The position numbers and the translations under genes were made by a program. The notes under the pieces are model-generated. The model ran no database searches and was not told the origin of the DNA. It worked only from the letters and a program-made list of their open reading frames with translations. Of a stretch of 64,000 nucleotides of DNA, positions 13,801 through 63,515 are shown in pieces (position 1 is the stretch's first letter; the number at the start of each line of letters is the position of its first letter). This DNA is from Malacoraja senta (lineage: Eukaryota), in the NCBI GenBank assembly GCA_038087875.1, contig CM075992.1, positions 1,552,001-1,616,000 on the forward strand. Direction: 5' to 3'.

Positions 13801-16800
13801 AAATCGAAGGTAGACAAAAATGCTGGAGAAACTCAGCGGGTGAGGCAGCATCTATGGAGCGAAGGAAATAGGCGACGTTTCGGGCCGAAACGTTGCCTAT
13901 TCCCTTCGCTCCATAGATGCTGCCTCACCCGCTGAGTTTCTCCAGCATATTTGTCTTAGATGCCTTGATTTGTCCCAATCTGCTCCACCTATTTTTACAC
14001 CAATTGCCTCTCCCAGTCTTTTGTGCCTTATTTCTCCATTTTGGTGTAATTCTTTGCTCACAGGGCTAATTAACCGTGATAGATCTGAGGGGAATTGATG
14101 GGAATGAAGAGATTACAGGGAAAATCGGTGACAGCTCTTTCACCAGGCATAGACCATGGGTCATGAGGAAATATCGGATCAATAGACAATAGACAATAGG
14201 TGCAGGAGTTGGCCATTCAGCCCTTCGAGCCAGCACCGCCATTCAATGTGATCACGGCTGATCATCCCCAATCAGTACCCCGTTCCTGCCTTCTCCCCAT
14301 TTCCCCTGACTCCGCTATCTTTAAGAGCCCTATCTAGCTCTCTCTTGAAAGCATCCAGAGAACCTGCCTCCACCGCCCTCTGAGGCAGAGAATTCCACAG
14401 ACTCACCACTCTCTGTGAGAAAAAGTGTTTCCTCGTCTCCGTTCTAAATGGCTTACCCCTTATTCTTAAACTGTGTGGCCCCTGGTTCTGGACTCCCCCA
14501 ACATCGGGAACATGTTTCCTGCCTCTAGTGTGTCCAAGCCCTTAACAATCTTATATGTTTCAATGAGATCCCCTCTCATCAGTGCCCTATACTACAAGCA
14601 AGCACAGGACTCCAAGTTTTCAATGCTGATTAATTCCGTATTGTGTGTGTGTTGGGCATGTTATGACGTACCTTGGCATCGTCACGAGAGAGTTGAGCAC
14701 CTGTGTTCATGACCTGCAGCTCCTTCAGCTGTTGTCGTTGTTGCAGGATCTCAGTTTCCAGCGTGTCCAGTTGCTTCTGAAAGGTCACACTCTCCTCCTG
14801 GATCAAAAAGAAGTTTCAAAACAATTAGGATATCCAGATAACATCCCGTAAAGGATGGAACAACACAAGGGACACAATATCCCAGATCCGATAAAGCCAC
14901 CAAGCGTTCACTTTAATACCTCACTAAGTAAGTAAGTAAGTAAGTTTATTGGCCAAGTGGAATTTGCCTTGGTGCTCCGCCCACAAGTAACAACATGACA
15001 TACAGTGACAGTTACGAATGACTCAGAAAACACTACACATTATTAATAATAAAACATTAATGATAAAACACCATTGATCAAGCATGTGAACCAACAAAAT
15101 ACCAGATCAAAGGGAGGCTACAGATTTTTTGGCTGTTGAGTAGAGCAACTACTCGTGGATAAAAACTGTTTTTATGGCTGGCCGTGGCAGAGGACATAGG
15201 ACATGTCCTATGACCAGAGGACATAGGCAGAGACCAGAGGACATAGGTTTAAGGTGAAGGAGAAATGATTTAGTAGGAATCTGAGGGGTAACTTTTTCCA
15301 CACAAAGGGTGGTGGGTGTATGGAACGAGCTGCCAGAGGAGGTAGTTGAGGCGGGGACTATCCCTTTTAAAAAAATGAAACAAGTTAGACAGGTACATGG
15401 ATAATGTAAGGAGGAACTGCAGATGCTGGTATAACCCGAGACTGGAGTAATTCAGCGGGTCAGGCAGCATCTCTGAAGAAAAGGAATAGGTGACATTTCG
15501 GGTCGAGACCCTTCTTCAGACCACTGTATTGTGTGCAGAGCGTCAGATCCCTGATGAAGGGTCTCGACCCGAAACATCACCCCTTCCTTCACTCCAGAGA
15601 TGCTGCTTGTCCCGCTGAGTTACTCCAGCATTCTGTGTCTATCATCGGTGTAAACCAGCATCTGCAGTTCCTTCCAACACTCTCCTACACTCTCTCTATG
15701 CTGAAGAAGGGTTTCGGCCCGAAACGTTGCCTAGTTCCTTCGCTCCATAGATGCTGCTGCACCCGCTGAGTTTCTCCAGCACTTTTGTCTACCTTCGATT
15801 TTCCAGCATCTGCAGTTCCTTCTTAAACACTCTCTCTATGCTAATGGATTGCTGAGACCTTTTGCTTCATCTACCCTTTCCTTCCAAATTTCTCCCCCTT
15901 TGAAGGTACCCTACAAGGATTGTCATGGTGAATATTGTTCAGAGACATGGAACTCATGCTGATGACCAGTACGGTCTGTATGAACAGAACAGTGGGTATA
16001 TGAGCAGCACAGTGGCGCAGAGGTAGCATGCCTCAAAGCACCAGGCAACTGGGTTTGATCCTGAATGTACGGAGTTTTTACGTTCTCCCTGTGACCATGT
16101 GGGTTTTCTCTGGGTGCTCCGGTTTCCACCCACACTCCAATGACGTACAGGTTTTGTAGATTTATTGGCTTCGGTAATTTGTAAAGTTGCCCCCTTGTGT
16201 GTTCGGATGGTGTTAGTGTATGGGGTTGATCGCTGGTTGGTGCGGACTCAGGGCCTGGTTCCATGCTGTATCTCTAAAGTCTCACCCTCCTAGGAATTGC
16301 AAGGCATCAGCAAAAGAAAAACGACCACACCTGCAGATGGGCCTTAAGTCGTAGATACACCTTCATCACATGTGTGGCCTCAACACATTTCAGCTGTGTT
16401 TTCTCCAGTCGATTCTCTAGCAGCCTCAAGGTCTGAAACACAAAAGCCAATGACATACTGTATGATGACAGAGAGCAAGCGGAAGAAGGGTTTCGGCCCG
16501 AAACGTTGCCTATTTCCTTCGCTCCATAGATGCTGCCTCACCCGCTGAGTTTCTCCAGCATTTTTGTCTCCCTTCGATTTTCCAGCATCTGCAGTTCCTT
16601 CTTAAACAGAGAGCAAGAGGATATCATTTTGCAAAATACTGTGCCATGCAAAGCACTTTAAAGAAACTCACTATCATTTAGGGCAACCTGGGGTAAATTT
16701 CACCTACCCAGGGGGTAAATTTGTCGATTCTGGATTTGTACATATGTTTTCTCATCGACTGACTGTGTTTGGTTCTGGTATACCACCGGATCTGTTCATC

Positions 16801-19800: not shown

Positions 19801-21922
19801 GAGAGACTTTCTAAGGTGTGCAGTCAACAGGTGCTCCAACCTTACCACCAATGTTCCTGCCAATACTTTATGCAGTTGTTTGTTCTCTTGTCTCAGGTGT
19901 TGAATGTTCTCCTTGTTTTTTCTTGATTTTATCCTGCGATGTTTCATAATAAGCCTTACGATCGCCCTCTGAAAGATAGCAAAGAGTAAGGTAAGTAAGG
20001 AAGGGTTTCGGCCCGAAACGTTGCCTATTTCCTTCGCTCCATAGAGGCTGCCTCACCCGCAGCACTTTTTTTATCTACCTTCGATTTTCCAGCATCTGCA
20101 TTTCCTTCTTGAACAAAGGTTAGGATATACCTCACATAGGCACCATGTCTCCGCTTGGATGCCCGTGCAGCTGGCATCGTAACTAGCTAGCAAAGCGGGA
20201 GTGGAAGCTCACAGCCTCACTTATGTTGCAGCAACATTCACAACTTGCAGCAAAATGTGAGTCTTTTGGTCGCCATTAAGTGCAGTCTGCCTTTACAAGG
20301 TATCATCTCAGGAAATAAGTAGCGTTCAAAATATCTTCTCCCTACTCCCCTAACTAGAGCATCGGATAGATCTGCGAAAGTGGCCCCTCATTTCGACATC
20401 TGCTAAATCAGACACTCATCCTTCCCTACATCTCATCCCCTTCTCCCTTTTCTTTGTTACCCCTCACACCCTTTTAACATAGCCTCATTTTACCCCTTCT
20501 CCTAACCCGATCTTTTAAACAGTTGTCTTTCTTTTTCCTTCTGTTCACACATCTCTCTCCCTGAACCTTGTACTTTCTTGCGCGGGAAGGAACTGCAGAT
20601 GCTGGTTTACACCGAAGATAGACACAAAATGCTGGAGTAACTCAGCGGGACAGGCAGCATCTCTGGAGACACGGAATAAGTGATGTTTTGGATCGAGACC
20701 CTCCTTCAGTCTTTTATTCCTTTTCTCCAGAGATGCTGCCTGACCCACTGAGGTACTCCAGCATTTTGTGTCTGTCTTCCTTGTACTTTCTTTCTCACCT
20801 TTCTAATCCACATTCATTCTCTCAGAGAGAAGAAGAGTCCACAAGGGACTCAACATATGAACATTTCTCAACAGTAGACGTGGCTATTTCCAGATTGTGC
20901 TCGGGGAGGTAGAACCCTTTGTAGTGTGGCACAGTCCCAGGTCACAAACCTGTCTGGTCATTTTCCACACTCGATTTCAAGAGAAAGGCCTGGATAGAGT
21001 GAGTGGAGAGGATGTTTCCACTAGTGGGAGAGTCTAAGACCAGAGGCCATAAAAGGACATTCCTTTCGAAAGGAGATGAGGAGGAATTTCTTTAGTCAAA
21101 GGGTGGTGAATCTGTGGAATTCATTGCCACAGATGGCTGTGGAGGCCAAGTCAATGGATATTTTAAAGATTTAATATTGACAGATTTTTGATTAGTGCGG
21201 GTGTCAGGGGTTATGGGGACATGGCTGGAGAATGGGGTTGAGAGGGAAAGATAGATCAGCTATGATTGAATATGTTCCCGATGTTGGGGGAATCTAGAAC
21301 CAGGGGCCAGTTTAAGAATAAGGAGTAAGCCATTTAGAACGGAGACGAGGAAACACTTTTTCACTCAGAGAGTTGTGAGTCTGTGGAATTCTCTGTCTCA
21401 GAGGGCGGTGGAGGCCGGTTCTCTGGATACTTTCAAGAGAGAGCTAGTTAGGGCTCTTAAAGATAGCGGAGTCAGGGGATATGGGGAGAAGGCAGGAACG
21501 GGGTACTGATTGGGGATGATCAGCCATGATTACATTGAATGGCAGTGTTGGCTCGAAGGGCCGAATGGCCTGCTCCTGCACCTATTGTCTGTTGTCTATT
21601 GTCTACGGCAGAATAGACTTGAAGGACCGAATGGCCTAATTCTGCTCCTCCTATCACTTCTGAACTTATGAGACAGAAGGGAAAGGGGGGGAATAAAAGG
21701 AAAATTAGGGATTCAGGGAAGGGAGGTGAGTATATGGAGGCGGGGATTCTGCTCCTAGCCACAAGGTGTACGTTAAACAGGTACCCATTAATCCAACCAA
21801 ACGCGATTTATAAACTAGTATTCCTATTAAAGCAAGCACACACCCAAGAGCTGGATTTTTTTCTGCAAATCCCAGATCTGATCCTGTACAGGGACCCGCA
21901 TCCGTGAGCTGTGTCCCGGCAT
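7837..21922 (-). CDS. ODAD3: Outer dynein arm docking complex subunit 3 (CCDC151), exons 1-10; two apparent 1-nt frameshifts; last exons missing, probably in the gap
   Basis: GT-AG exons: 21922-21844 (MPGHSSRMRVPVQDQIWDLQKKIQLL, in-frame upstream TGA); 19968-19846 (EGDRKAYYETSQDKIKK/NKENIQHLRQENKQLHKVLAGTLV, one extra A); 19136-19062 (SDEKLDQ..RNKSGK); 18274-18095; 16432-16331 (TLRLLENRLEKTQLK..VYLRLKAHLQ); 14797-14672; 12332-12210; 10955-10812; 9834-9675 (one nt short; ..KYSGETKLS); 7993-7837. The peptides match recalled CCDC151 motifs (KKIQLLEGDRKA, LENRLEK, KYSGE). Confidence 0.92.
10293..10596. mobile_element. MITE with long terminal inverted repeats (PIF/Harbinger-like termini)
   Basis: The left arm ccctgccccacggtacgagttcattccaagagctctcccgag matches the reverse complement of ctcgggagagctcttggaatgaactcgcaccgtgggacaggg on the right. 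Internal direct repeat gagtcttcccg..tacctgccgttag. Confidence 0.75.
15551..15578 (+). ncRNA. Minimal type-I hammerhead ribozyme-like motif in a Penelope-derived short element
   Basis: CTGATGA-A-GGGT(CTCG)ACCC-GAAA-CATC. Confidence 0.55.
15701..15728 (+). ncRNA. Minimal hammerhead ribozyme-like motif
   Basis: CTGAAGA-A-GGGT(TTCG)GCCC-GAAA-CGTT. Confidence 0.6.
16680..16890. mobile_element. Small hAT-type MITE remnant
   Basis: Right end aggttgggaacccctg (CAGGGGTTCCCAACCT-type TIR); degenerate left end gggcaacctgggg; atttagg on both flanks. Confidence 0.5.
19580..19781. repeat. (TTCA/TTAA)n tetranucleotide microsatellite
   Basis: cattcattcattaattaattcactc... over ~200 bp in ODAD3 intron 2. 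Confidence 0.9.
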
Positions 21923-22103
21923 GGTCGATCCTAGACTTTCTTGGGTTCAGTTTGCCTGTCCGGTCGAATCTCCCGGTGCTGTTGCGTCTGCTGAGTTTTC
22001 AGCCTCTCTGTTCGTCCGCGGATGGGGATTCCTCACCCTTCCAGTCCCGGGGTCCCAAACCTCCAGTCTCCAAGCTTATCACCTCGCCTCTCAGTCTGAT
22101 CTC

Positions 22104-22292
22104 TGTATCTCTCGCCAGGCAAGCAGTCAACAAATGTATCCCTCGCCAGGCAAGCAGTCAACAAAAGCAGTCTGAAGAAGGGTTTCGGCCCGAAACGTTG
22201 CCTATTTCCTTCGCTCCATAGATGCTGCTGCACCCGCTGAGTTTCTCCAGCACTTTTGTGTAAAGCAGTCAACAAACCCGTTGCTGTGAAAC
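22104..22292 (-). promoter_or_regulatory. Putative ODAD3 proximal promoter: RFX X-box-like site and three forkhead-like GTCAACA sites
   Basis: GTTGCTGTGAAAC at 22280-22292. GTCAACA at 22126, 22157 and 22268. All lie 200-370 nt upstream of the ATG of a motile-cilia gene. Confidence 0.45.
22172..22199 (+). ncRNA. Minimal hammerhead ribozyme-like motif (in ODAD3 promoter region)
   Basis: CTGAAGA-A-GGGT(TTCG)GCCC-GAAA-CGTT. Confidence 0.6.
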
Positions 22293-22445
22293 CGCAGTTT
22301 CCTGTTCCCGTTCACTGAGCGGACCTATTCCAGAGTTTAGTTCTCCGGGAACTCTGATGGTGATATATATATCTATATATATATATAACACGAAGATAGA
22401 CACAAAATGCTGGACAGGCAGGATCTCTGGAGAGAAGGAATGGGT

Positions 22446-22473
22446 GACGTTTCGGGTCGAGACCCTTCTTCAG
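22446..22473 (-). ncRNA. Minimal hammerhead ribozyme-like motif with GUC cleavage triplet
   Basis: Minus strand CTGAAGA-A-GGGT(CTCG)ACCC-GAAA-CGTC. Confidence 0.65.
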
Positions 22474-22493
22474 ACTGATATATAACACGTTAC

Positions 22494-23355
<862 letters not shown>

Positions 23356-25020: not shown

Positions 25021-25194
25021 AGATCTGGAGAGAGGGAATGGGTGACGTTTCGGGTCGAGACCTTTCTTCGCCACCCATCCCTTCTCTCCAGAGATGCTGT
25101 CTGACCCACCGAGTTACTCCAGCTTTTTGTGCCCATCTTCGGTTTAAACTAGCACCTGCAGTTCCTTCCTAACAAAAGCTCTGCCCTGCTTTGG

Positions 25195-25833
<639 letters not shown>

Positions 25834-26356: not shown

Positions 26357-26968
<612 letters not shown>

Positions 26969-27631: not shown

Positions 27632-30600
27632 GTGAGGTCCGGGAAGGGTTGGGTGTGGGTCTCAAAATAATTGGTGGCTCAGGTGTGAAACCTGTGCATG
27701 TTCAGGTACAAATTTTTCACACAGAGAGTGGTGAATCTCTGGAACTCTCTGGCACAGAGGGTAGTTGAGGCCAGTTCATTGGCTATATTTAAGAGGGAGT
27801 TAGATGTGGCCCTTGTGGCTAAGGGGATCAGGGGGGTATGGAGAGAAGGTAGGTACGGGATACTGAGTTGGATGATCAGCCATGATCATATTGAATGGCG
27901 GTGCAGGCTCGAAGGGCCGAATGGCCTACTTCTGCACCTATTTTCTATGTATCTATGTAAATGCTGTGATCTTGACAGATTTCCTTACAGATACGTTTTA
28001 AAACCTTCGGATAGCCTATTCTATTCTCCTTTGGATTAAGTGTGGTCCATTATTTAAAAAAAAACAGGAGGTGAGGGTGACACATTCTGGCCCATGTTAA
28101 TGATAGCGTGCCAATCTATTTCACTCACCCTAATATTTCCATTGTTTTAACCTCAACAAAGTGGACAGATTTCATATCTCTCTCCTGAGGTTTACTCTCA
28201 CCATTGTTTCAAACGATCACTGCTTATGCCGACTAGTGTATACAGTGAGTAAATACTGTTTGCAAAATAGTGATTGTGCAGGAAACCACTTGAAATGTTT
28301 AGCAGGTTGTGCAGTGTCTGTGGTGAGATTTAAAAAATATATATAGTTTAAATTATGATTCATAAGTTAATGATAGATGCATTTTAAACAATGAAGCAGA
28401 AGAGAAACTGGAAAAGGAGAAAGAACTAGTAAAATGTTTGGAGCTAAACAACTTGCAATACCTGGCTTATAACTTGGTAAAATAATAAGACAGACACAAA
28501 ATGCTGGAGTAACTCAGCGGGACAGGCAGCATCTGTGGAGAGAAGGAATGGGGAGATTCCTTCTCACCTGAGACTTTGCCTGTCCCGCTGAGTTACTCCA
28601 GCATTTTGTGTCTATCTTCGGTTTAAACCAGCATCTACAGTTCCTTCCTACACATTTGGTAAAATAATAAATTGTCCTTGGATGGAACCTGATGCAGGTT
28701 CATTAGATTAGTACCAGGGCCTCTGGAGGATTAAGGATATAAACCTGGCCTATCATTCCTTACATTGAGAAGACTGAGTGTGGAACTATTTAAGATGTCT
28801 GAAATTATTAGGAAGGAACTGTAGAGGCTGGTTTATACCTGAGATAGACACAAAGTGCTGGAGGAACTCATCGGGTCAGGCAGCATCTCTGGAGAAAAGG
28901 AACAGGGTTGGAAAGTCTGATGAAGGGTTCCAACTCCAGAGATGCTGTCTGACCCACTGAGTTAACAGACAATAGACAACAGGTGCAGGAGTAGGCCATT
29001 CGGCCCTTCGAGCCAGCACCGCCATTCAATGTGATCATGGCTGATCATCCCCAATCAGCACCCCGTTCCTGCCTTCTCCCCATATCCCCTGACTCCGTCC
29101 GCTATCTTTAAGAGCCCTATCTAGCTCTCTCTTGAAAGCATCCAGAGAACTGGCCTCCACCGCCCTCTGGCAGAGATTTCCACAGACTCACCACTCCTCC
29201 AGTTCCTCCAGCACCTTGTGTCTATCTTCTGACTAAAATGATAATGGTTTGATACAGTGGACTGAGATAAACGATTTCCTTTGGAGTGGGAAATTGGAGC
29301 AAAAATGCATTATTCTTGAAATTGTAGCTGGGTGGAAGTCAGTTTTCGAGATTGAAATCCCTAGATTTTACCAGGTAACAGCATGAGAGAAAAATTAGAT
29401 AGAGAGGAACAGAAAATGAAACAGACTCATGGGACTAAAGGACTACTTCCCGTTCCAAGCTCCCTTAGTGCTGACCTTGTATATCTAAAATGAAAACTGT
29501 TGCTTTACTCAGCAGGAACAATCCATGGAAAAGCTGGGCTAATCAGCAAGAGATGTGATTAAAGTGTAAACAAAGCAAGTTAAAACCTGTTCCAGGGCAG
29601 AGTCCAAAAGCTCAGCCCTGGTTTGGATCAGATCAAATTAAGTGAATTGGGTCACTCGTACAAAAACCCACCTGATAACTAGAAATGATCTGAAGAAGGG
29701 TCTGAAGAAGGGTTTCGACCCGAAACGTTGCCTAATTCCTTCTTTCCATAGATGCTGCTGCACCCGCTGAGTTTCTCCAGCACTTTTGTCTACCTTCGAT
29801 TTTCCAGCATCTGCAGTTCCTTGAAAAAAACTATAAATGATCCTGGGTCTGGGTATGTTGGGGAAGGTTCAGTTCTCTAAAGCACAGGACACATCCTGTA
29901 AATTGCTGAAGACTCACATACAGTATGTACACTCAAAGTGTGTGGGAAGGAACTGCAGGTGCAGGTTTAAACCGAAGATAGACACAGAATGCTGGAGTAA
30001 CTCAGCGGGACAGGCAGCATCTCTGGAGAGAAGGAATGGGTGATGTTTCCGGCCGAGACCCTTCTTCAGACTGAACCATATTCAAAGTTGTTGAATATAG
30101 ACCGGTGGGAGGGATGGACAGAAGAACCCGGCATATTAGAATTATAACAGGGTAAATTCCACAGGGTATTAACCAAAATGTGTGTCAGTTTCAGGTTGCA
30201 ATATTTGTTCAAGTTGCATTGATGTTCCCAGTCATTCTCCATGAAGTAATGGCAGGCCCCAGTCCTGCTGCTAAGATGGGTAAGCATTCTTCATTTGTGT
30301 GGATGTAGGAGCTGACTTGCACACCTTCATGGTCAGAGGGAAATATTTAAATCTGATTCCTATAGAATGCTGTACTTAGTGTTGTTACCAGTTGGTCTTA
30401 TTTCTTGTGACTCTTTGTCATGTTCTGCATTGCCTTCCCTTGTGTTATCAGTGGATGTTGTACTGATAAATGTAATGCCAATGAGAGTAAGGTTGACGGT
30501 ACAGGTGGCGATCCAAGACGTCTGCAAGTGCAGAAACCCTTTTCACTTTCATATTACTTTCAGGTTTGTATGAAAATGTGGGATTTGGTGGGATCTACTG

Positions 30601-39626: not shown

Positions 39627-39997
39627 CTAACTCAGCGGGACAGGCAGCATCTCTGGAGAGAAGGAACGGGTGACGAGATATATATACGCATACATTGGTA
39701 CATATGCGTGGACTGGTTCTTGGTTTCTTGGTCCTCCAAAATATTCCAAATGGAATTTATACTGGAGGTGGTGGAGGGAAGAGGGAAGTGATGGAGGGAT
39801 AGAGAGAGAGAGAGAGAGAGGGAATGTCGGGCTACTTGAAGTTAGAGAAATCAAAATTCATACCACTGGGCTGTAAGCTAGCTGCCTACATGCATTGTTC
39901 TTTATCTTTCCACATCTTAGTCTATATCTCTCGTTTTCCCCATCCCTAACCAGTCTGAAGGGTCCCGACCCAAAACGACAACCATTCCCTCTCCAGA
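39627..39997 (-). mobile_element. Penelope-like element 3' remnant (end of GIY-YIG ORF plus inverted terminal repeats)
   Basis: Minus strand 39879-39832 encodes SLQPSGMNFDFSNFK*, which resembles the C-terminus of Penelope-like ORFs. It is followed by a CT-rich tract and the same terminal sequence as the hammerhead-bearing short elements. An inverted copy sits at ~39895-39997. Confidence 0.6.
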
Positions 39998-42600: not shown

Positions 42601-42611
42601 CTATAATCCCA

Positions 42612-52729: not shown

Positions 52730-55700
52730 TTACTCAAAGTCCTGATAGATTTGCCTTGGACGGTTGCCATCCGTGGACTGGATTTGTTGGTAGTCGCACT
52801 CGCTGTATTCTGAGTCGCCTGCCAACTGGATGCCGTCTTCGTTGGGGAAGTTGGAAGGGGAGCAGTACTTTGGGTCATATACCTGCCGGCTCAGCCCATA
52901 CACAGTCATTCCTTTCTGTGAGGCCCCCAGATTTGTTCCCATCTGTAGTGACACGATGCTGGAGTCACATTTTTCAGTGCCCAGCTTGTTATCAACAATG
53001 TGTCTCCGTGTCCCCGGTGCTGTCATTCCAGCCTAAAAACAGCAATCAAATAGGTTGGAAAAAGATCAGTGTAAACTGTATTATTTCTCACCCAATCTTC
53101 CACATCCATTGAGTTACCATTGTGACCTTGTTCATAACCTGCAACATCTATATAGTTCTTCCAACCTGCTCCATCCCCTGCCATATTCTCCACTCCCATT
53201 CAACCATACCAATATCCTCCACTATCACCTTTTCCATTAGTGTCTATCGGAATTATAGGAACAGCGCACTGCAATAACATGATTCTTCCACAGCTCTGAA
53301 TAGGTTAACAATTCTATTGAAGAATTGGAGGATGATGAGATTCCATTGTCACACAAGTAGAACTGCTACCTCACAGCGTCAGAGACCCGGGTTTGATCCC
53401 AACCTCTGGTGCTATCCGTGTGGAGTTTGCACGTCCTCCCTGTTTCCTTCAGGTGCTCCCACATCCCGAAGATGTGCGAGTTTGTAGTTTAATTGGCCTC
53501 TGAAAATTGCCCTAGTGTGTCCGGAATAGACTAGAAAGTGGGATAACATAGAATTAATGTGAAGGGATGACGGACGGTTGGTGTGGACTTTGTTGGCTGA
53601 AAGGGCCTGTTTCCATGCTGTATCTAAAATGTTCATTTGAACGCGTCTTTCTGATCTCATTCCTGTGCATGCTGTTCCCCGTACCTGTGATGCCCCTTTG
53701 TTGGTTCCCATTTGGAGGCTAATGGTTGTCTGGTCAAGAGGCTTCTCCACTCCGGTTTTAGAATCATACAGATGCCGTCTGGTACCGTAGGCTGTCATAC
53801 CTTGCTGGCTGGCAAATTTATTTGTCCCCATCTGAAGGAAAAAGAACAAGTGAAAAATATACATAAGATGGAATGAAAACTTGCCATGTTGGTGAATACA
53901 ACGTCTTGCGAAGAACCCAACTGATGGAGTGAAGTTTGTTCACTAATTGGTTAGTCCCTCCTTTTGAGAGCAGAACATTAAAAAAAATAGGTGCAGGAGT
54001 AGGCCATTCATGGCGGATCATCTAAAATCAGTACCCCCTTCCTGCTTTTTCCCCATATCCCTTGATTTGGGGAAATCAAGGAACAATATCTGCCTCTTGT
54101 TTAACGCTAATAGAATGATCTCAATTAAATCAAAACTCTGCATTGGTTGTCTCCACCCTCCTATTATCATTGCCTGCTGTTACCCTCTCTCCCATCCATG
54201 TGGTCTCAGGTGATTGCTCCCACGGATCTGCCAATGGAATAGCCATCACTAATTCTCTCCACGTCACCCTCCACAATAGCTGTTCTTACGAACAAGACCT
54301 GCATTATGGATAATTTAAACAGTCTCCTAATGATGCCTTCCTATGCCTGGTTATAGCTTCCCACCACCTGGCTCACTCAACATCAGTGGCCGCTCCCGAT
54401 GGCAAGGTCAGTCCATACCTGAAGTCCAATGATGTTCTGTCCTGCTTTCAGTGTCTCATTATTAAAAACGCGTTGCTGCTTCTCTGCATATCTGATACCA
54501 ATATCCGATTTGGTGTGGTACCCTTTCGTCTTTGCCTGTGTGAAATAAGAGATTACCTTAGCCGCAAGAGAAGAGTGGGTCAGATGTTCTATTAAATAGT
54601 TGCGGAGCTTTTTGATTAAGGTGGTCACTGTAGAGGCACTCACCAAACTGGCTAGGGCCATGAGCGTGGTCTGAACTTGAGTCAAGTTGCAATTCTCATA
54701 CAAGTCGTTGGCCTCAAAACTGTCATGAAGCTTCACGCCATATTTTGTCATTGCTTTGAGGAAGTTTCCGATATTCTCCAACTGTGTGGAATAAAAGCAA
54801 TTGTGATGACCAAGCTGCCGATAGCAATTGGCTGCACATTCTAGCAGTTGTGAATACCCAGTATTAGGGGCTGTTTCTACCAGAGAATCGCCTGCTGCCA
54901 CGCAAGTTTAGAAAAACTAGAGCTTGAGTTTTACAATTTTAACTATTTTTTAACAAAATGGATAAAAGTCCAAATCTCAACATAGAAATATTTTTCATTG
55001 GTAAGATTTATACCAATACTAAATCTTAAGCTTGCAGAATTAGTTTGGCTTTCAGATTGATGCAAGTGAACTATTGATCAATCCATTTATTTCAAAACAA
55101 AGAGCTGGAGGAACTCAGTGGGTCAGGCAGCATCTGCAGGAGTGGGTAGGCAACGTTTTTAGTTGGGACAGTTCTTCCAACACTATAGTGGTGTGATAAT
55201 AATAATAATAATAATCATTTTATTTACTGGCGCCTTTCTAAAACCCAAGGACACCTTACAATGCATAGAATCACAAAAAAATACAAAACACATAATCGGA
55301 ATAAATTAAATATAAAAACACCACAGTACACAAATCAAGGACAGAATTCAATTTCAAGAGCAAAGACAATCGGAAGAGTATAAAGGCAGGTGAAAAAAGT
55401 GGGAAAACAAAGCTGTGTGCAATTAAAACCATAGGAAATTAAGATTTCTGTTGAAGATTTTCACTAGAAATATTGTAAAGATTTTAACTCAATGGGTGCT
55501 TCAGGCAAACATCTAGTTATCCTCGGTAAATGGAAACCATCTTGAACTCAACCACCCCTTTCTAGCTCCAAACCCCCTATCGACTTCAAAGAAACATTGT
55601 GACTGTTCCTGTCCCCCCCCTCTCCCCCCCCACATCAGTCTGAAGAAGGGCCTCGACCCGAAACGTCACCTATTCCTTCGCTCCATAGATGCTGCCTCAC

Positions 55701-58700
55701 CCGCTGTCTTTCTCCAGCATTTTTGTCTACCTTGTAACTGTTGGAGTCACTTCCAGCGCTGAACTCATTCTCTGGCAGATTGGAAAGACTGCATTTAGCA
55801 TATTGTGTTCAGTTCTGGGCACCATGTTAGAGGAAAGATATTGTCAAGCTTGAAAGGGCTCAGAAAAGATTTACGAGGGTGTTGCCAGGACTAGTGGGTG
55901 TAAGCTATAGGGAGAGATTGAGTAGGCTGGATCTCTATTCCATGGAGTGCAGGAGGATGAGGTGTACAAAATCATGAGAGGAATAGATCGGGTAGATGCA
56001 CAGAGTCTTTTGCCCAGAGTAGGGGAATCGAGGACCAGAGGACATAGGTTTAAGGTGAAGGGGAAAAGATTTAATAGGAATCCGAGGGGTAACTTTTTCC
56101 ACACACATGGTGGTGGGTGTATGGAACAAGCTGCTGGGGGGTGTAGTTGAGGCTGGGACTATTCCATCGTTTAAGAAACAGTTGGACAGGTACATGGATA
56201 GGACAGGTTTGGAGGGTTATGGACCAAGCACCGGCAGGTGGGACGAGTGTAGCTGGGACATTGTTGGCAGGTGTGGGCAAGTTGGGCCGAAGGACCGGTT
56301 TCCACACTGTATCACTCTATGACTCTGTGGTAGTGTTTCTGGAGATTGAAAATTAATGCATCTTATTGTCTTTTTATTTTAAAAAAACTGAAATTACAAA
56401 TTCTTTCCAAAAACTAAAGAAAAAAATAAAACACCAAAAACTCGAGCCCCAGCGTGGGACTAAAAATAATTGGGCCCAGTCAATTTGGATCAATGACGCA
56501 AACAGAAGGAAAAGCAAGTTATACCCTTAGGTAAATGCCAGTAATGATACATCATTACCGGTATAAAAAATGTCAAGGATGGGGTTAGATTCTTCATGTG
56601 TACCAATGGGGACTTTCTTAGAAATAGATATTTCTGGTTATAAGGTTTGATTATTATCTACAGGGACCAATGGTAAGTCATTGTTGCTATTTATGGGGTT
56701 GCTATTCATTGGAACTGCTTTGAGTCTGCTATTCATTGGAACTGCTTGATTTGTATGCAAAACCAAATACTCCGGATGCTCGAAATCTAAAATAAATACA
56801 GAAGCTGTTTATTTAAATATTTAGCATAATCTTTCCAGTGTTTTCACATATGATTTACACCAGTCGATTGCTGGTAATGAGGGTTAGTTGCTGATCTACT
56901 GGGTCTGTAGGGAGTTGTGATTTGTTGTCTTGGGTACATCGTTTGCTTATAGAAACATAGGGATAAGAGTGATAGAGAGGGAAGCAGAATGAACTTTTAG
57001 AAACATAGGAAGTAGGTGCAGGAGTAGGCCATTCGGTCCCACGAGCCAGCACCACCATTCAATATGATCATGGCTGATCATCCTAAATCAGTACCCCGTT
57101 CCTGCTTTTTCCCTCATATCCCTTGATTCTGTTAGCCCTAAGAGCTGTATCTAACTCGCTCTTAAATATCCAGTGAATTGGCCTCCTCCACTGCCTTCTG
57201 TGGCAGATAATTCCACATATTCACAACTCTCTGGCTGACAAAGTTTTTCCTCATCTCAGTCGGAAATGGCCGACCCCTTCTTAAACTGTGACCCCTGGTT
57301 CTGGACTCCCCCCAACATCGGGAACATTTTTCCTGCATCTAGCCTGTCCAATCCTTTAAGCGAATCCTTTAAGGGAAGCAAAAGTGCTGGAGAAACTTCA
57401 CCCGCTGAGTTTCTCCAGCACTTTTGTCTACCTTCGATTTTCCAGCATCTGCAGTTCCTTCTTAAATCCTTTAAGGGAAGCTGCAGGTTCGGAATGGCTG
57501 AGAGTATAGTGGTAATCAAAGATCATGGAGCGGAGCTATGATCTTTGGTGGTAATCGTAAAGATTGTGTATTTAGACCACTGTTTACGTGGCTATGCTGT
57601 TTAGACAGATTGAATTTTGATATGGTAGTAAATCACGAGAAGGACATTTGCATGCCTTGCATATCATTCTGTAGTTATAAACATGTCCACAATTTCGTCA
57701 TTGCTCCTACAATCTTTCTCGCCACAAGCTTGCACCTTATCTCCAACAAGCCTCCCATTGGCATGGAATTGATCCACAGAACTAATAGGAAACCATTATT
57801 TGAGAATAGTTGGAATAGAGACAATCATTACTGCGAAGAGCCGTCTGCTCAGACACTGAAATGCTAAGTTAATTGACAAAGTAGCAGAGTATTAGTTAAA
57901 TGCTAAACAGTGGGATTATTTACTTCAGTATGAAGAATAGAAAAACAATGTATATATAAATGGAGAAAAACGTTTAAATGTTAGTTTATAAGCAGCAAAT
58001 ATTAAGGCACATAGAGGGGTTAAGAATTTGTGGAATATTGGCCTTGGTTATAAGAGTTAAGAAAAGTGAAACTATGTGTCTGAGCAGACTTCTCAGTAAT
58101 GATTGTCTCTATTCCAGCTATTCTCAACTAATGGTTTACCTTTAGTTCTGTGGATCAATTCCACTCCAATGGGAAGCTTTGGGGTACAGCACCTTGAGTA
58201 TTGTGTGCAGTTTTGGTCTGCAGGTAGGATATATTTATCTTGGAAGCTATGCAGCTTCATTAGATCAATGCATGCCGGATATGTCGTATGCAGAGAGTTT
58301 GGGTAAGATTAGCCTGCACTCACTGCAGGTTTAGTTTAGAGATACAGAGCGGAAACAGGTCCTTCGGCCCACCGAGTCAGCGCGGAACAGTGATCCCCGT
58401 ACATTAACACTATGCTACATACTCTAAGGATAATTTATATTTATACCAAGCCAATTAACATACAACCTGTACATCTGTTCTATTCTGTTCTGTAGATTTT
58501 TGCACAATCCGCAGGCATTGTATGTAACAAATAAACCTGACTTGACTTGGTCTTTGGAGTGTGGGAGGAAACCGAAGATCTCTGATGAAACCCTCGCAGG
58601 TCACGGGGAGAACGTACAAACTCCGTACAGACAGCACCCGTAGTCGGGATGGAACTTGGGTCTCTGGTGCTGTAAGCGCTGTAAGGCAGCAACTCTACCG

Positions 58701-61700
58701 CTGCGCCACTGTGCCGCCAATGATGAAAACAAAATTATCTTTGATTCTGGAAAGGAACTGTCAAGGTCGAGCTTGGGGGATTATTTCCTTTAGTTTAAGT
58801 GTAGGGCATAAAATCAGGACAAGTGGTTGGTTGTTCAGAATAGAGGATATATTCTGTTGTTTCCAATGATTTTAATGATACTTTGTTGTCACATGTACCT
58901 AGGTACAGTGAAATGCTTTGTTTTGCATCCAACCTGGTAAAGCCGTATGGCAGACCTCATCTAGGCAGTGCACAACCTATCTACAGGTGGGTATGGGAGT
59001 GGGAAAGGGAATTAAAATGGCTTGCAGGAGAAAGCTCCAGCTAGCTCTTTTCCACGAGTAGTAGCTCTACTCAATAACCAAAAATCTGTAGCCTCCTTTT
59101 GCTCTGGTATTTTATTTAATTCACATGTTTAATCAATAATGTTTTATTGTTAATGTTTAATGTGTCATTCCTAACTGTCACTGTGTGTCATGTTGTCACT
59201 TGTGGGCGGAGCACCAAGGCAAATTCCTTGTATGTGGATATACTTGGCCAATAAACGGATTCATTCATTCAGTTCAGCGAAGTAGTTGCCTTGCCTACAC
59301 ATTAACTCACTGATGTAGAGGAGGCCATTGAATGCAATAGATAGGTTAAGTGGGGGGGGGGGGGGAAGCAGAACCATCTTTGCTGAAGAAAGTGGACATG
59401 TAGGATCAGGTGGAAAAATGGAGGAGCATAGATTCCGCTGTAATTTTACAGTTTGGCCAAGCGCGATTATCACCCCAGTTTCTGTTCCTGGAATGTTTTG
59501 CTTTGTACGTCATTCTGTCTAACAAAATCTTTCTGAAAGTTAAAAAATTCGTATCATTCTGCTAACATTCTTAAAGTACGACGCATAGTATGACAGATAT
59601 TTGCTTTCTGATTCCACGCTGGTTGTTTGTGTTGCTCCCTAGATACTGTCTTGACCTTGGGACGATTTCTATGCATTGCCTAGTTTTGAAATTGGGTCTG
59701 TAAGCCTGCAAGCGAGTCTAGAATAGATATGTTCTCTCCATAAAGAAGTAACTGATATCTATTTTGCTGGCCTGCTCTTGGCAATGTTGCTGAGGTAGCT
59801 TCTCTTCTCGAGCATTAGACTTGTTAACTAATCTCAAGCTGCTCTTAAATTATTGCTCACAATCAGTAGTAATATCCAATAATATTTCTGCATTACCAAT
59901 ATACAGTAACTGCAGTTTCCACCCACTACTGTCAATCTGTACTTAAAGCTGTGGAAAAGCATTGCCTTTTTTGGGTGTATAGCTATGAGCTTTTGTATAT
60001 CTTATCTTCAGACTCTTGTTGAGGTTTTGTGCTGAGCATGAGATGGAGAATGTCTGTTACATTCAGGGACATCCTCCTAAGCAGAATGCCCGCCAGATGC
60101 TGTGCGGGAGTATGCCTGGTTTCCATCACCCACCACTATGTTCTCATGTAGACAGATGGATCAGGAAATATGTTCACTACCTGACCCATTATTGTCATGG
60201 AAGAATAGGCCTCATCTTTCCTGAACCAAGGTTAAATGGCAAGATAGTCAAAATTGAAAAGTCCAAGCATGTAAAATGAATGAAGGGTCTCGACCCAAAA
60301 CATCACTTTTTCCTTTTCTCCAGAGATGCTGCCTGACCCACTGAGTTACTCCAGCATTTTGTGTCTATCTTTGGTGTAAATCAGTTTCTGCAGTTCCTTC
60401 TTACACATGTAAAATGCAAGTTGTAGGAAAGAACTGCAGATGCTGGTTTAAACAGAAGATAATCACAAAATGCTGGAGTAACTCAGCGGGATAGGCAGCA
60501 TCTCTGGATAAAATGAATGGGTGACATTTTGGGTTGAGACCCTTCTTCAGACTAGAGATGCTGTCTGTCCCGCTGAGTTACTCCTGCATTTTGGGTCTGT
60601 CTTCACGTTACAGAAGATGAGGGTTGGTTGTGTAGGCTGGGACTCTATTCCTTGGAGCACAGGAAGATCAGGGGTGACCTTATAGAGGTGTTTAAAAGCA
60701 CGAGAGGAATAGATCAGGTAGACACACAGAATCTCTTGCCCAGAGTAGGTGAATTGAGGACAAGAGGACATGGGTTTAAGGTGAGGGGGGGGAAATAATG
60801 AATAGGAATTTGAGGGGTAACTTTTTCACACAAAGGGTGGGTGTATGGAACGAGTTGCCGGAGGATGTCGTTGAGGCTGGTACTATTGCAACGTTTAAGA
60901 AACATTCAGATAGGTCCATGGATAGGCCAGGTTAGAGGGATGTGGGGCAAAAGCAGGCAGGTGGGACTAGTGTAGCTGGGACATGTTGACCGGCATGGGC
61001 AAGATTGGCCGAAGGGCCTGTTTCAATGCTGTATGAATCTATGACTATGACAGTAAAGCACAGAACAAAATGCAGCATTTATAGAGCCTTAAGGGTTCAA
61101 GGGGCATTTTCAATGACATTTTGAAACCAACTACAAAACGGGAGATTAAGACCATATATCAAAGATTGGTCTCAGAGGTCAGTTAGAAGATCTGTATTAA
61201 GAAAGAGCAGAAAGGCAGAGAGATTCAGGGAGGGATTTGCAGAACGTCAGGATGTTGGAGGCTGAACATATGGCCACCAGCTGGGAAGTGATTAAATCCG
61301 GGTCTGCTGGAATGGAAAAGTAGCAGGGAATGTTGGAGGAAGGATTGCAGACTTGCAGGGGGGTTCATACATGGCCTGTAGGAGTGGGAGCAGACGTGCA
61401 GATGGGGCAGAAAGAGAACAAATCACACCAGTCCACGCAGAGTGTAAAACCCCAGAATGTTTGTCCACTTGTCTCGATTCACACTGATCCCACGCACCGT
61501 TTCAATTTGTTAACCCTACCTGATGCCAGTTCTGTGGGGAGGCACTAATCTTCTTCACTGAGCCAGGTTGTAGTTTATTAATTAGGCTTAAAGAGAAGGA
61601 AATGCAAGATGAGAACTTTAAATATGAATACAATAATTCCCTGATTTATGAATGCTTAATTTTTTGCAATAACATTATTGACTATGTACCTTCAGTGTAC

Positions 61701-63515
61701 GAAGCAACTTTTCACTGTAATGAATAATGTGCCATTATTTGCGTATAACAATGTGTTGTACCAAAAAAACCACAGTGTATTTTACCCAGTCTTTTAGTTT
61801 ACAAAACTTTCACTTAATTAAATACATTTCAGAATACATCCGTTTTGTACATCAAAGAATTGCTGTGTAACAAAGGGCAATAGTGATGAAGCTTTTTTGT
61901 GAGATAATGTTATCCCAAAGTCACTGTGTGGTTGGCTACTCACTGAAGGAGAGTATCACTAGCACAAGTGATACAGACTAATTCGGATAAGCAAAGGTAC
62001 ACAAAAATGCTGGAGAAACTCAGCGGGTGCAGCAGCATCTATGGAGCGAAGGAAATAGGTAACGTTTCGGGCCGAAACCCTTCTTCAGAAACGTTACCTA
62101 TTTCCTTCGCTCCATAGATGCTGCTGCACCCGCTGAGTTTCTCCAGCATTTTTGTGTACCTTCGATTTTCCAGCATCTGCAGTTCCTTCTTTAACAATTC
62201 GGATAAGCAGTTGGTTAGACACACATTGGTGGCAGAGAGTAGGGAAGATTCAAGCAAGAGGACATGATTTGAGTATTAAGGGACAAAAGTTTAGGGGTGA
62301 CATGAGGGGGAACTTCTTTACTCAGAGTGTGGTAGCTGTGTGGAATGAGCTTCCAGTGGAAGTGGTGGAGGCAGGTTCGATTTTATCATTTAAAAATAAA
62401 ATGGTTAGGTATATGGATGGGAAAGGAATGGAGGGTTATGGTCTGAGTGCAGGTAGATGGGACTAGGTGACAGTAAGTGTTCGTCACGGACTAGTAGGGC
62501 CGAGATGGACTGTTTCCGTGCTGTAATTGTTATATGGTTATATCAGGGCTGGGATGCCTGGTTGAATAGGTCTGGGTAGAGATGTACTGAAATGGACGGG
62601 TGAAATGGGTGGAGGTACATTGGTTACACGACGAGGAAGAACAATGCTGGATAGGGCTTTTCCGGGTAGGAAGACCATAACAGTGGTCGCACCCACCCAG
62701 AAGGTGGGTATTGGAGGCTGGTGGTACAGTGTAGGATTCAGTAGAATTGGTGTGGTTGGTAATTCATCACACACTATGAGGCTGTGTCCAAAGGCTTTAA
62801 GAAGGAACTGCAGATGCTGGAAAATCGAAGGTAGACAAATCGAAGGTGGACAAAAGTGCTGGAGAAACTCGGAGGGTGCAGCAGCATCTAAGGAGCGAAG
62901 GAAATAAATTTCCTTCGCTCCTTAGATGCTGCTGCACCCTCCGAGTTTCTCCAGCACTTTTGTCTACCTGTGTCCAAAGTCTCGTGGGACCATTAACCCG
63001 CCACAAGGCTCATTGGGACTGGGAGGGCGCTGGAGCCATCAGATGTGAGGAGTGGGCCGGTAAGAGGGTGAACCAGGGTAATGCCTTCAGCGCCTTCAAT
63101 GTCGGCTGCAGGAGGCGTCCCTGAGACACAAAGATGGCTGGATGAGGATAGGAGAGGGACGTCGGTTCTCGGGAACTGCTCTGCTACTCTGAGCGCGCGG
63201 GCCGACCCGGACTTTGAATAATTGCGCCAAAAACTGCATATGTATAATATAATGTAAAAAATATATGCAAAAGGAATTTCGCTGTGCAGTTGCATATGTG
63301 ACAAATAAAGCTCCATTGACCATTGTGTACTGGTTGTGAGTGCATTCTCCTCTTGAACACTCGGTTCCTGGAATAGTGTGTAGATTTGCTTACTTGCACA
63401 GTACAATTCCATTCTTCAGCCCATCCATTAAGGTTTCAGGAAGAACGACTCCAATGACATCTTCAATCCATCTCCGAATATCCTCATCTTTTTGTGGGTC
63501 GTACTTCTGGGCAAT
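52730..63515 (-). CDS. CNN1: Calponin (calponin-1-like), exons 2-7; exon 1 lies beyond the window end
   Basis: Exons 63515-63394 ([26 protein letters not shown]), 61586-61520 ([17 protein letters not shown]), 54781-54644 ([16 protein letters not shown]), 54535-54419, 53831-53685 ([23 protein letters not shown]), 53032-52730. CH domain plus three calponin repeats. The CNN1 call rests on [17 protein letters not shown] and on adjacency to ELOF1-ACP5. AATAAA on the minus strand at 51601-51606. Confidence 0.9.
55640..55667 (+). ncRNA. Minimal hammerhead ribozyme-like motif
   Basis: CTGAAGA-A-GGG(CCTCGA)CCC-GAAA-CGTC. Confidence 0.55.
62061..62088 (-). ncRNA. Minimal hammerhead ribozyme-like motif (sense orientation in CNN1 intron 2)
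   Basis: Minus strand CTGAAGA-A-GGGT(TTCG)GCCC-GAAA-CGTT, at the centre of an inverted-repeat element (~61995-62190). Confidence 0.6.

Follow-up and report, generated by a model that had tools for sequence, protein, structure and literature searches.

The short repeat units of about 95 or 130 nt scattered through this 64,000-nt stretch of the Malacoraja senta genome (the window) come from the terminal repeat (pLTR/leader) of a ~3.8-kb Penelope-like element (PLE). A hammerhead-like motif lies at the 5' edge of the unit, and the motif family is an ordinary yet very numerous case of the hammerhead type already described for PLEs. The motif is probably a mark of PLE end-pieces that matches the minimal type-I hammerhead, with any cleavage predicted to be dimeric or helped by protein.

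When up to 2 mismatches are allowed, a hammerhead-like 27-mer matches the window at 12 sites, against none in 100 dinucleotide shuffles (mean and maximum 0); allowing 3 mismatches gives 14. All ten sites that an earlier note had called intact were among the 12: 15551-15577, 15701-15727, 22172-22198, 29702-29728 and 55640-55666 on the plus strand, and 15493-15519, 22447-22473, 30043-30069, 36393-36419 and 62062-62088 on the minus strand. The further matches are at 16480(+) and 60524(-). The seven sites described as decayed (5211, 5372, 16480, 20683, 39955, 60279 and 60523) are all real as well; that at 20683 is the 5' part of a copy at 20586-20709(-), and that at 39955 carries a deletion. The density given in the note, one element per 2-3 kb, proved too low, as blastn with one 126-nt copy as query returned 45 fragments in 64 kb. 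In an unbiased 264-kb sample surrounding the window, 210 fragments make up 6.9% of bases and divide into the two subfamilies previously recognized, type A (77 fragments) and type B (133). Genome-wide, a degenerate 28-mer occurs 41,995 times in 1.94 Gb (reversed control, 0), and the extrapolated genome total is ~5 x 10^5 fragments. The copies in the window are these:

5141..5657, unstranded: cluster of decayed and composite zig-zag copies, with a duplicated 33-nt core fragment at 5534-5605; its composites are without the CUGA box.
12450..12690, unstranded: composite inverted pair (minus arm with unit positions 9-128, duplicated 33-nt core fragment, plus arm with unit positions 6-93), flanked by AGAATATG.
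13772..13956, unstranded: head-to-head pair of a long-form and a short-form arm, both from unit position 11, overlapping by 15 nt.
15407..15519, minus: unit of subfamily B, forming the left arm opposite 15551-15679 in a head-to-head pair; inter-arm gap 31 nt.
15551..15679, plus: long-form unit of subfamily B, forming the right arm opposite 15407-15519.
15701..15829, plus: long-form unit, subfamily A; core 15701-15728, leader to the second 3' end; flanked by duplication ACTCTCTCTATG.
16480..16608, plus: long-form unit, subfamily A; CGGA replaces CUGA; flanked by duplication ACAGAGAGCAAG.
20586..20779, unstranded: subfamily-B pair, head to head; the minus arm is complete and the plus arm begins at unit position 33.
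22167..22262, plus: short-form unit that runs to about unit position 91 and has 5 additional bases (AGCAG) upstream of the T at -1; flanked by duplication AAGCAGTCAACAAA.
22391..22476, minus: short-form unit, subfamily B; core intact (22447-22473); flanked by duplication CGTGTTATATAT. It adjoins an 856-bp (AC)n array.
29702..29822, plus: long-form unit, subfamily A; core intact.
29946..30069, minus: long-form unit, subfamily B; 2 changes in the core.
36289..36427, minus: long-form unit, subfamily B; core intact; upstream spacer of ~8 bases.
39929..39995, plus: decayed copy with an upstream spacer; the deletion lies within the core.
55631..55733, plus: short-form unit with a C-rich spacer of ~10 bases upstream; C:A mismatch in helix II.
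60277..60408, plus: decayed long-form unit, subfamily B; flanked by duplication CATGTAAAA(TG).
60424..60604, unstranded: head-to-head pair; 60424-60550(-) is a full unit, 60554-60604(+) runs from unit position 46.
61985..62196, unstranded: head-to-head pair; 61985-62088(-) covers positions 1-104 and 62088-62196(+) positions 21-129, with one junction base common to both arms; AATTCGGATAAGCA flanks the whole pair.
62796..62969, unstranded: head-to-head pair whose arms are cut off at unit positions 32 and 35; core absent from both.

No head-to-tail tandem array was found in the window, and its sole tandem with a period above 38 bases, at 15551-15834, is two independent adjacent insertions. Copies had been placed in sense orientation within introns of ODAD3, ACP5 and CNN1. 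A calponin-repeat gene lies on the minus strand at 52733-53939, but the copy at 55640(+) is antisense to it; among 100 ORFs scanned, none had a match naming ODAD3 or ACP5.

The full unit runs from a core (28 nt) through a leader of ~100 nt to an ATG ~35 nt on, an ORF containing a DKG motif, RT and GIY-YIG, a stop, a spacer and the next core. From stop codon to next core the spacer is about 100 nt and C/T-rich. The suspected link to Penelope ORFs is upheld, the motif lying on the ORF strand ~100 nt past the stop of an RT + GIY-YIG ORF. At L003/L016 a GIY-YIG ORF (PF01541, 30.5 bits) stops 107 nt before a same-strand core; the order of ORF then core holds in 14/14 ORF-bearing loci (L016-L029) and likewise in L030-L036, and a core plus leader stands immediately upstream of the unit body in 12/12 loci. 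None of the ORFs in the loci examined is both intact and full length. The longest, 634 aa at L030, matches RVT_1 (E 7e-6) and then GIY-YIG (E 9e-4) and has a KPADKGG motif; both matches are below Pfam curated cut-offs (RT 26.2 vs 29.6 bits; GIY-YIG 19.9 vs 22.6), the EN piece of L016 being the only one above. Counts fall toward the 5' end, from 105,480 for the EN end to 10,752 for the RT N-terminal piece and 3,459 and 2,222 for the 5' pieces, all of these being first-look candidates and not copy numbers. Partial tandems, head-to-head inverted pairs, target-site duplications and two alternative 3' ends are PLE signatures present here. Units of both subfamilies find their match in the terminal repeat of copies with an ORF, which speaks against the separate non-autonomous family that the earlier note had proposed; given this match, the short units may be by-products of run-off or truncation.

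Placed on a full-length reference, the fragments give a coverage of 7-8 at -150 to -20, 51 at core base 1, 122 at +10, 155-174 at +20 to +80, 81 at +100, 64-75 as far as +120, and 5 at +130. The 5' boundary is sharp, with ~95% of copies ending at the motif's 5' edge, and short copies are ~20 times commoner than longer ones. The 5' ends of 134 of ~190 fragments fall at -8 to +22, the 5' two-thirds of the core, and only 2 of ~190 fragments start at positions 29-30, the predicted cleavage site. Since so few copies start there, copy ends are probably not set by the ribozyme. Solitary fragments account for 112 of the 210 in the 264-kb sample; 65 of them begin within positions 1-6, and their 3' ends lie at 85-100 in 49 cases and at 119-130 in 46; these two 3' end positions, ~33 nt apart, are the PLE "tail" signature. 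Neighbours in the same sample are head-to-head in 52 cases and tail-to-tail in 11, and the arms of a pair are unequal, typically one long form and the other short form. Elsewhere in the genome some pairs are perfect palindromes with 1 nt between arms. Exact target-site duplications of 9-16 bp were found for 15 of 60 tested copies. The 5' junctions scatter from -13 to +7 and conservation of the upstream bases at -1 to -6 is 79, 67, 57, 51, 44 and 49%, a gradual pattern looser than a single RNA start site would give; CAGT is kept immediately upstream of the core in every spacer variant seen.

The motif combines CUGANGA, one unpaired A, a 4-bp helix II with G10.1-C11.1, GAAA and the palindrome ACGU followed by U or C. 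Helix II had been described as mostly paired and capped by a UUCG/CUCG loop: the pairing is kept in 10/12 sites and fails at 55640 (C:A) and 30043 (G:G), and the loop is kept in 11/12 and lost in one. The helix I of ~2 bp is evident by eye and is a contiguous 2 bp in the full-length context too. Searching with hammerhead models, as had been suggested, gave no match to the motif: no Rfam hammerhead family reached gathering score across the whole window, or E up to 10 in 15400-15900. The hammerhead was not the minimum-free-energy fold in either of two contexts folded, where imposing helix II together with an open core carries a penalty of 4.5-5.1 kcal/mol. Both subfamily majorities have every core base and the ACGU palindrome intact, and the three subfamily differences within the core are all hammerhead-compatible; their rate (3/28) is not clearly lower than the ~20/100, by eye, outside it. 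In scattered copies the core erodes at the same pace as the flanks, contrary to the expectation that it would outlast its surroundings, so these copies are not kept as ribozymes; CpG sites decay faster. Because this decay is neutral, most scattered copies are likely inactive as ribozymes, in agreement with the caution that many might be.

We propose a model where target-primed reverse transcription would start inside the RNA at either of two sites, and where both DNA strands would be primed, giving inverted pairs. Most template RNAs would begin at the core's 5' edge, from a promoter within the repeat, so the enzyme would run off after ~95-130 nt. Such run-off is most likely what places ~95% of ends at this edge. 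A "tail" signature of this kind, with two internal start sites, was measured in vitro on PAc of Anolis, according to the available portions of that study (PMC11167929).

The sharp boundary and the excess of short copies would also suit a self-propagating, SINE-like non-autonomous lineage with an internal promoter within ~130 nt and the PLE enzyme borrowed in trans, a reading we consider rather unlikely. The CAGT conserved just before the core would fit such a promoter, TCAGT resembling an initiator. The promoter would be like the Inr/DPE-type internal one of D. virilis Penelope, keeping new copies transcribable, a detail we hold equally doubtful; excerpts of Schostak 2008 (PMC2377424) describe that internal promoter as TATA-less. 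Composite inverted variants with identical breakpoints occur at 9 places in 264 kb, with flanks differing in at least some, which suggests that some non-coding variants were copied as such, but three of them (c3, c4 and c9) have flanks in common at 97-98% identity and some of the nine may be segmental duplicates. Moreover, copies decay neutrally, and no short-only lineage is apparent because both subfamilies match the ORF-bearing terminal repeat. A roadblock, at which RT usually stops on the hammerhead fold or a bound protein before the cDNA is linked to the target, is improbable. It would account for 5' ends spread over -8 to +22 and not at one base, and the PAc hammerhead cleaves only with protein in the sections available of Frangieh 2024 (PMC11167929), implying that protein binds it. 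However, in 8/12 full-length copies read-through of the upstream core extends 54-502 nt, very unlikely if only ~5% could pass; a stem-loop stop is expected 3' of helix II, yet most copies hold the whole helix (122 at +10 vs 155 at +20); and inverted pairs, whose ends were trimmed by the junction, supply many of the +6 to +22 starts.

It is possible, though we doubt it, that the motif does not work as a ribozyme in this family at all, and that it is kept in master copies as a protein-binding or promoter element with the core retained by descent. The 2-bp helix I, the missing Rfam match, the unfavoured fold and the indifference of copy ends to the cleavage site are consistent with this, as are the very low in vitro activity reported by Cervera 2014 (PMC4209133) and, from a partial view of Craig 2021 (PMC8557442), PLE clades that proliferate well without hammerheads, whose function is unclear. 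The intact core and palindrome in both subfamily majorities and the hammerhead-compatible nature of all three core differences argue otherwise, and PAc, with the same GAAACGUC arrangement, cleaves with protein and responds to core mutations as a hammerhead should, in the sections seen of PMC11167929. We give almost no credence to the view that the inverted pairs are foldback/MITE-type DNA transposons whose long terminal inverted repeats flank a motif present at the centre by chance. The 52 head-to-head pairs and the perfect palindromes recall such elements, but more than half of the fragments are solitary, arms are unequal, duplication length varies, this same sequence runs without a break into an RT-EN ORF, and inverted 5'-truncated neighbours are a PLE feature in the part consulted of PMC8557442.

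Like the SINE-like Sm-alpha/Sj-alpha elements of schistosomes, as covered in part of a review (PMC6765202), the units are short interspersed retroposons carrying a hammerhead. Those have a promoter and then a canonical active hammerhead, whereas the hammerhead here is minimal; for a small-RNA head, no Rfam family reached gathering score in the whole window. Short non-coding units with type-I hammerheads are also common to animal non-LTR retrozymes (Cervera and de la Pena 2020, PMC7229834), which, in the excerpts available, are related to PLE pLTRs and have monomeric dispersed derivatives (also Li, Clavereau and Pollet 2026 preprint, likewise in excerpt). What defines retrozymes is the head-to-tail tandem array, a source of circular RNAs; the window contains none.

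Closer relatives are the minimal hammerheads of metazoan PLE pLTRs, for which Cervera and de la Pena 2014 (PMC4209133) described mostly solitary motifs, opposite-strand motif pairs and, in D. virilis, a 2-bp helix I. At the level of sequence, the motif here shares with them type-I order, CUGANGA, an unpaired base ahead of helix II, G10.1-C11.1, placement in the sense direction within the terminal repeat, mostly solitary copies numbering in the thousands, opposite-strand pairs, and a tiny palindromic helix III, which implies dimers; dimer cleavage was reported by Lunse et al. 2017, via part of the review PMC6765202. Helix II is 4 bp with a UUCG/CUCG loop here vs 7-8 bp in Schistosoma families, and the 41,995 exact 28-mers far exceed the 4,000-9,000 copies of coelacanth and Xenopus. 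D. virilis Penelope (PMC2377424, in part; PMC4209133) likewise has a 2-bp helix I and, directly before it, a pyrimidine-rich stretch ending CAG, there the 3' end of an intron. Its promoter within the terminal repeat is comparable to the one proposed here, but its RNA starts ~120 nt upstream of the hammerhead, whereas copy ends would place a start within ~10 nt of the core here.

A further parallel is Poseidon PAc of Anolis carolinensis, known biochemically where the skate element is read from DNA (Frangieh 2024, PMC11167929, to the extent available for all that follows). Both have a hammerhead followed by two RT start sites around a tail, in PAc an optional 30-40 bp bracketed by two internal start sites, here 3' end clusters near unit positions 85-100 and 119-130. 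The PAc ORF starts inside the hammerhead, with start sites 111-118 nt into it; here the second 3' end precedes the ATG by ~35 nt, which would put the RT start sites in the 5' leader. PAc nicks both strands and extends both, in keeping with the inverted pairs. The two also have in common the GAAACGUC arrangement and copy ends independent of the cleavage site. PAc hammerhead mutants insert unchanged in vitro, and in the sections available no PAc RNA-seq reads end at that site.

The dispersed repeats of the window belong to a real and very abundant family. All ten sites that the earlier note had called intact, and all seven that it had called decayed, were recovered by pattern search and blastn. 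The 27-nt hammerhead-like pattern matches the window 12 times with up to two mismatches and 14 times with up to three, and it has no match in 100 dinucleotide shuffles. A longer repeat begins with this motif, and blastn with a 126-nt copy (15701-15826) as query finds 45 fragments of it in the window. Across the 1.94-Gb genome, the exact 27-mer of subfamily A occurs 19,354 times and a degenerate 28-mer 41,995 times, with zero occurrences of either reversed control. As an unbiased sample we took the window with 100 kb on either side, 264 kb in total, in which 210 fragments of the unit (the repeat of about 95 or 130 nt that opens with the core) account for 6.9% of the bases. Type A contributes 77 of these, with a median identity of 94% to one representative, and type B the other 133, with a median of 87.5%. 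The same sample holds 16 exact 28-mers, about 2.8 times the whole-genome density, and scaling the genomic 28-mer count by its ratio of fragments to 28-mers (210/16) gives an estimate of some 5.5 x 10^5 fragments genome-wide. Thousands of contigs from four runs, which carry the labels of four organisms, map to three repeat copies and leave the unique flanks uncovered. Those of runs X1, X5 and X6, labelled as three other organisms (A, B and C), cover the copies at 90% identity or more, and the family is therefore common to related species.

The earlier note had also proposed that the repeat derives from Penelope, and this is borne out by an ORF with reverse transcriptase (RT) and GIY-YIG endonuclease (EN) domains that lies upstream of the core on the same strand. 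A genome search with the GIY-YIG family found a locus, L003, where the repeat lies 3' of a GIY-YIG ORF on the same strand, with 107 nt from the ORF end to the CUGA box. With the L003 ORF as genome query, 150 matches were scored among 105,480 first-look candidates, and each of the 14 loci examined next (L016-L029) has the repeat about as far past the ORF end as L003. The single ORF has the order of an EN+ Penelope-like element (PLE), RT followed by a C-terminal GIY-YIG endonuclease: in the 634-aa ORF of L030, residues 118-289 match RVT_1 (E 7e-6) and residues 538-570 match GIY-YIG (E 9e-4), and the 572-aa ORF of L031 has the same order, with the scores of both domains in the long ORFs falling below the Pfam curated cut-offs. 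The EN piece of L016 reaches 30.5 bits, above its cut-off of 22.6. The ORFs of L030 and L035 carry KPADKGG N-terminal of the RT, and Craig 2021 (PMC8557442) gives a DKG motif in this position as diagnostic of canonical EN+ PLEs. The linker before the GIY-YIG domain, C-x7-C-x2-C-x2-C, recalls the Zn-finger-like linker described there for Neptune and Nematis. A tblastn search of the EN-bearing ORF against phage records, an ill-suited collection, gave no match.

Seven long copies compared pairwise share about 3.6 kb of sequence, and the core-to-core distance in L036 is 3,786 nt. At 12 of 12 loci, a core with a leader of about 100 nt stands directly upstream of the start of the unit body, in a partial copy whose start varies between -502 and +57, counted from the core; this upstream copy is the partial-tandem pseudo-LTR of PLEs. 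Because the body start is preceded by core plus leader, and a core follows the ORF, the order of the unit is core (28 nt), leader (about 100 nt), ATG, ORF, C/T-rich spacer (about 100 nt) and next core. We place the ATG about 35 nt past the leader. An ATG at unit position 50 was rejected as the ORF start, as its frame stops within 41 aa in eight of the nine copies that have it and at 69 aa in the ninth, and this short frame makes a start about 35 nt after the unit more likely for the main ORF. The 5' third of the ORF contains an internal array of 27/54-nt repeats (L033:3000-3800, L034, L036), encoding a peptide with RRLTG, whose copy number varies between copies.

The scattered copies have a sharply bounded anatomy, as seen when the fragments of the 264-kb sample are laid on a full-length reference.

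Coverage along the full-length reference in the 264-kb sample, by distance (nt) from the first core base
-150 to -20, upstream of the core: 7-8
0, first core base: 51
+10: 122
+20 to +80: 155-174
+100: 81
up to +120: 64-75
+130: 5

From this profile, about 95% of copies end at the 5' edge of the core or within the core, and the 3' ends form two classes. Solitary fragments (n=112) behave alike, 65 starting at unit positions 1-6, with 3' ends at 85-100 in 49 and at 119-130 in 46. Exact flanking duplications of 9-16 bp were present at 15 of 60 copies tested; by these, the 5' junctions range from -13 to +7, and eight copies have their 3' end at 88-99 and seven at 126-133. The two 3'-end clusters, about 33 nt apart, have the spacing of an optional 30-40-bp tail. 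Upstream of the core, base conservation among 63 copies is 79% at -1, drops to 49% by -6 and is 29-41% further out.

Neighbouring copies in the 264-kb sample lie head-to-head in 52 cases, tail-to-tail in 11 and in direct orientation in 34. The head-to-head pairs typically join one long-form arm to one short-form arm, and at least one such pair, at 61985-62196, has a single duplication around both arms. They are adjacent inverted 5'-truncated copies, and longer inverted arms also occur in L003 and L033, two of the loci with ORF-bearing copies. TRF found no tandem arrays of the unit in the 64-kb window; the head-to-tail arrangement of retrozymes is absent there.

Composite zig-zag variants with identical breakpoints occur at nine places in the 264 kb (window 5141-5657 and 12450-12690; L037-L039 and L056). 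Each consists of an inverted arm, a duplicated core fragment of 33-34 nt and a forward arm from unit position 6-9, and the CUGA box is lost; some have differing flanks and duplications of their own, others have common flanks at 97-98% identity. A small tandem array at about L039:7322-7460 repeats unit positions 5-38, a 35-nt stretch of the core region, at least four times. Long (AC)n/(TG)n microsatellites at 22496-23351, 25196-25825 and 26357-26968 of the window lie 23-24 nt from three PLE fragments; a bias of PLE insertions to microsatellites is reported in Craig 2021 (PMC8557442). On their right side, the fragments at 25080-25172 and 26219-26333 are flanked by identical sequence, which suggests a local duplication of about 1.1 kb.

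The earlier note had held that these elements carry the known minimal hammerhead, and the match to the published features of PLE minimal hammerheads bears this out. Those features are the core, one unpaired base before helix II, a G10.1-C11.1 closure, and a palindrome at 15.2-16.2 or in loop 3 that would allow dimers (PMC4209133). Arranged in type-I order, the core CUGANGA ... GAAA ... UH is preserved without change at 7 of 12 window sites and in the majority sequence of both subfamilies. In CUGAAGA-A-GGGU(YUCG)RCCC-GAAA-CGU-Y, helix II has the G10.1-C11.1 closure and the single unpaired base between 9 and 10.1, and both majorities have the palindrome ACGU after GAA. A dimeric helix III is predicted from this palindrome and not from a cofold of the 57-nt core segment, which is identical in the two contexts used. 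Helix I falls short of 4-6 bp: a U:G/A and a G:C pair are followed by two mismatches, in the full-length context as well, so that the stem of about 2 bp noted before stands. A 2-bp helix I is found in a minimal variant of D. virilis (PMC4209133), and PLE minimal hammerheads are mostly solitary, occur as opposite-strand pairs and show very little in vitro activity (Cervera and de la Pena 2014, PMC4209133).

Other tests were less favourable to a working ribozyme. The Rfam hammerhead covariance models, which had been put forward as a check, gave zero window matches at gathering score, and a search of 15400-15900 at E up to 10 returned six Rfam matches, none to a hammerhead family (type I, HH9, HH10, II or III). 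The three-helix motif of a second PLE family goes unmatched as well, so that these models say little about PLE variants. The minimum-energy fold in two contexts pairs the purine-rich core with a downstream pyrimidine run, and forcing the hammerhead costs 4.5-5.1 kcal/mol. Subfamilies A and B differ at three places inside the core (loop U/C, U:G to U:A and H17 U/C), all compatible with the hammerhead and not statistically distinct from the flanks. The earlier note had named core decay at the rate of the flanks as evidence against its proposal, and this is what the scattered copies have undergone: core bases are lost as fast as flank bases, CpG sites faster, with no stronger conservation of the core.

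What, then, sets the 5' ends at the core? Self-cleavage would place them at the predicted site, and starts at unit positions 29-30 are found in only 2 of about 190 copies; because they are so rare, cleavage does not define the copy ends, and we reject this explanation. If the enzyme generally halted at the core, the boundary would also result, but read-through of the upstream core, by 54-502 nt in 8 of 12 full-length copies, makes this unlikely. We also reject splicing at the CAG that precedes the core as the source of the 5' ends, as about half of the copies keep CAGT and coverage of the spacer is flat. The simplest account that remains, we infer, is run-off on short RNAs followed by turnaround. 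Most template RNAs would have their 5' ends no more than about 10 nt from the CUGA box, the enzyme would start about 95 or 128 nt downstream and run off the RNA 5' end, and the product would often be turned around or met by a second-strand product, giving inverted pairs centred on the core. CAGT before the core is conserved in all spacer variants seen, and an internal TATA-less promoter within the repeat is described for D. virilis Penelope in Schostak 2008 (PMC2377424). The scatter of the 5' junctions is greater than a single start site would predict.

A further version of short-RNA run-off, which we consider improbable, is that the hammerhead region has been taken over to fix the template's 5' end. 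Short RNAs would start at an initiator-like CAGT before the CUGA, driven by an internal promoter in the 130-nt unit, and the enzyme would bind and start about 95 or 128 nt downstream; the result would be a self-copying, SINE-like retroposon made of the pLTR alone, about 20-fold over its parent and at an estimated half million copies, with the core kept for binding or transcription and not for cleavage. A DPE/MTE-like reading of the GAAACGU region is about 3 nt off the consensus spacing, and we keep it only within this template-end proposal. A Pol III origin was rejected by eye against the consensus, as the helix II hairpin is only loosely B-box-like and too near the 5' end, and no A box was seen; no Rfam family reaches gathering score anywhere in the window, and no tRNA-, 7SL- or 5S-derived head is seen there. 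The short unit may carry a promoter and spread by itself as a SINE-like lineage, or it may be no more than a dead by-product.

A second, unrelated PLE family is present in the same genome, at L014 and L015 (G000:C5485:1-10000 and C1804:1-10000), at L002, L004 and L005, and in arrays on C14 at about 18.24-18.41 Mb. It has a 759-aa ORF (RVT_1 E 3e-6, GIY-YIG 27 bits) and forms tandem arrays in which the spacing ranges from about 1.5 to 7.5 kb. Its three-helix, hammerhead-like motif has a helix I of 8 bp (in L015), a helix II of 4 bp and a helix III of 5 bp, and has no Rfam match. At five loci, what the copies have in common breaks off exactly behind GTC, the predicted cleavage triplet, as though self-cleavage had set the unit ends at that site.

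Other features of the window were observed alongside the repeats.

6365-6928, minus strand: ORF with a TNF-family domain (E 2e-7)
23692-25148, minus strand: LINE-type RT ORF (RVT_1 E 3e-24), then an ALKBH8_N match (E 1.5e-12); unrelated to the PLE
42428-43050, plus strand: overlapping frames with a DUF6944 match that spans a 7-nt repeat (GCTACAG, 31 copies); the match is probably a low-complexity artefact
52733-53939, minus strand: two calponin-repeat ORFs (E 2e-21 and 3e-15), which support a minus-strand calponin gene

The literature searched, outside Repbase and Dfam, included work on cartilaginous-fish PLEs and gave no account of this particular family; a full-text search for three stretches of the element found no paper. 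That PLEs carry minimal hammerheads was already known; this family adds a sharp boundary on the 5' side, at the core, and a clear signature of a tail with two ends. The pile-up of 5' ends at the core edge is unaccounted for by published models and offers a concrete handle on the role of PLE hammerheads. For annotation, the hundreds of thousands of hammerhead-like matches in this genome are dead retroposon ends and not ribozyme genes.

PLE insertion has left a very large natural record in this family. Its fossil copies bear three signatures for which the only measurements so far came from in vitro work on one lizard element: two internal starts separated by the length of a tail, priming of both strands, and copy ends that take no account of the ribozyme cleavage site. 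That element is PAc, the Poseidon element of Anolis carolinensis, and Frangieh 2024 (PMC11167929) reports that it nicks and extends both DNA strands, that two internal reverse-transcription start sites bracket the tail, that hammerhead mutants leave insertion in vitro unchanged, and that none of the RNA-seq reads end at the cleavage site. The hallmarks given in Craig 2021 (PMC8557442), namely strong truncation at the 5' end, partial tandems, a neighbouring inverted copy that is itself 5'-truncated, an optional 30-40-bp tail and pLTR hammerheads, are all found in the present family. The PAc findings have their genomic counterpart here in two 3'-end classes that lie about 33 nt from each other and in an excess of pairs in head-to-head orientation.
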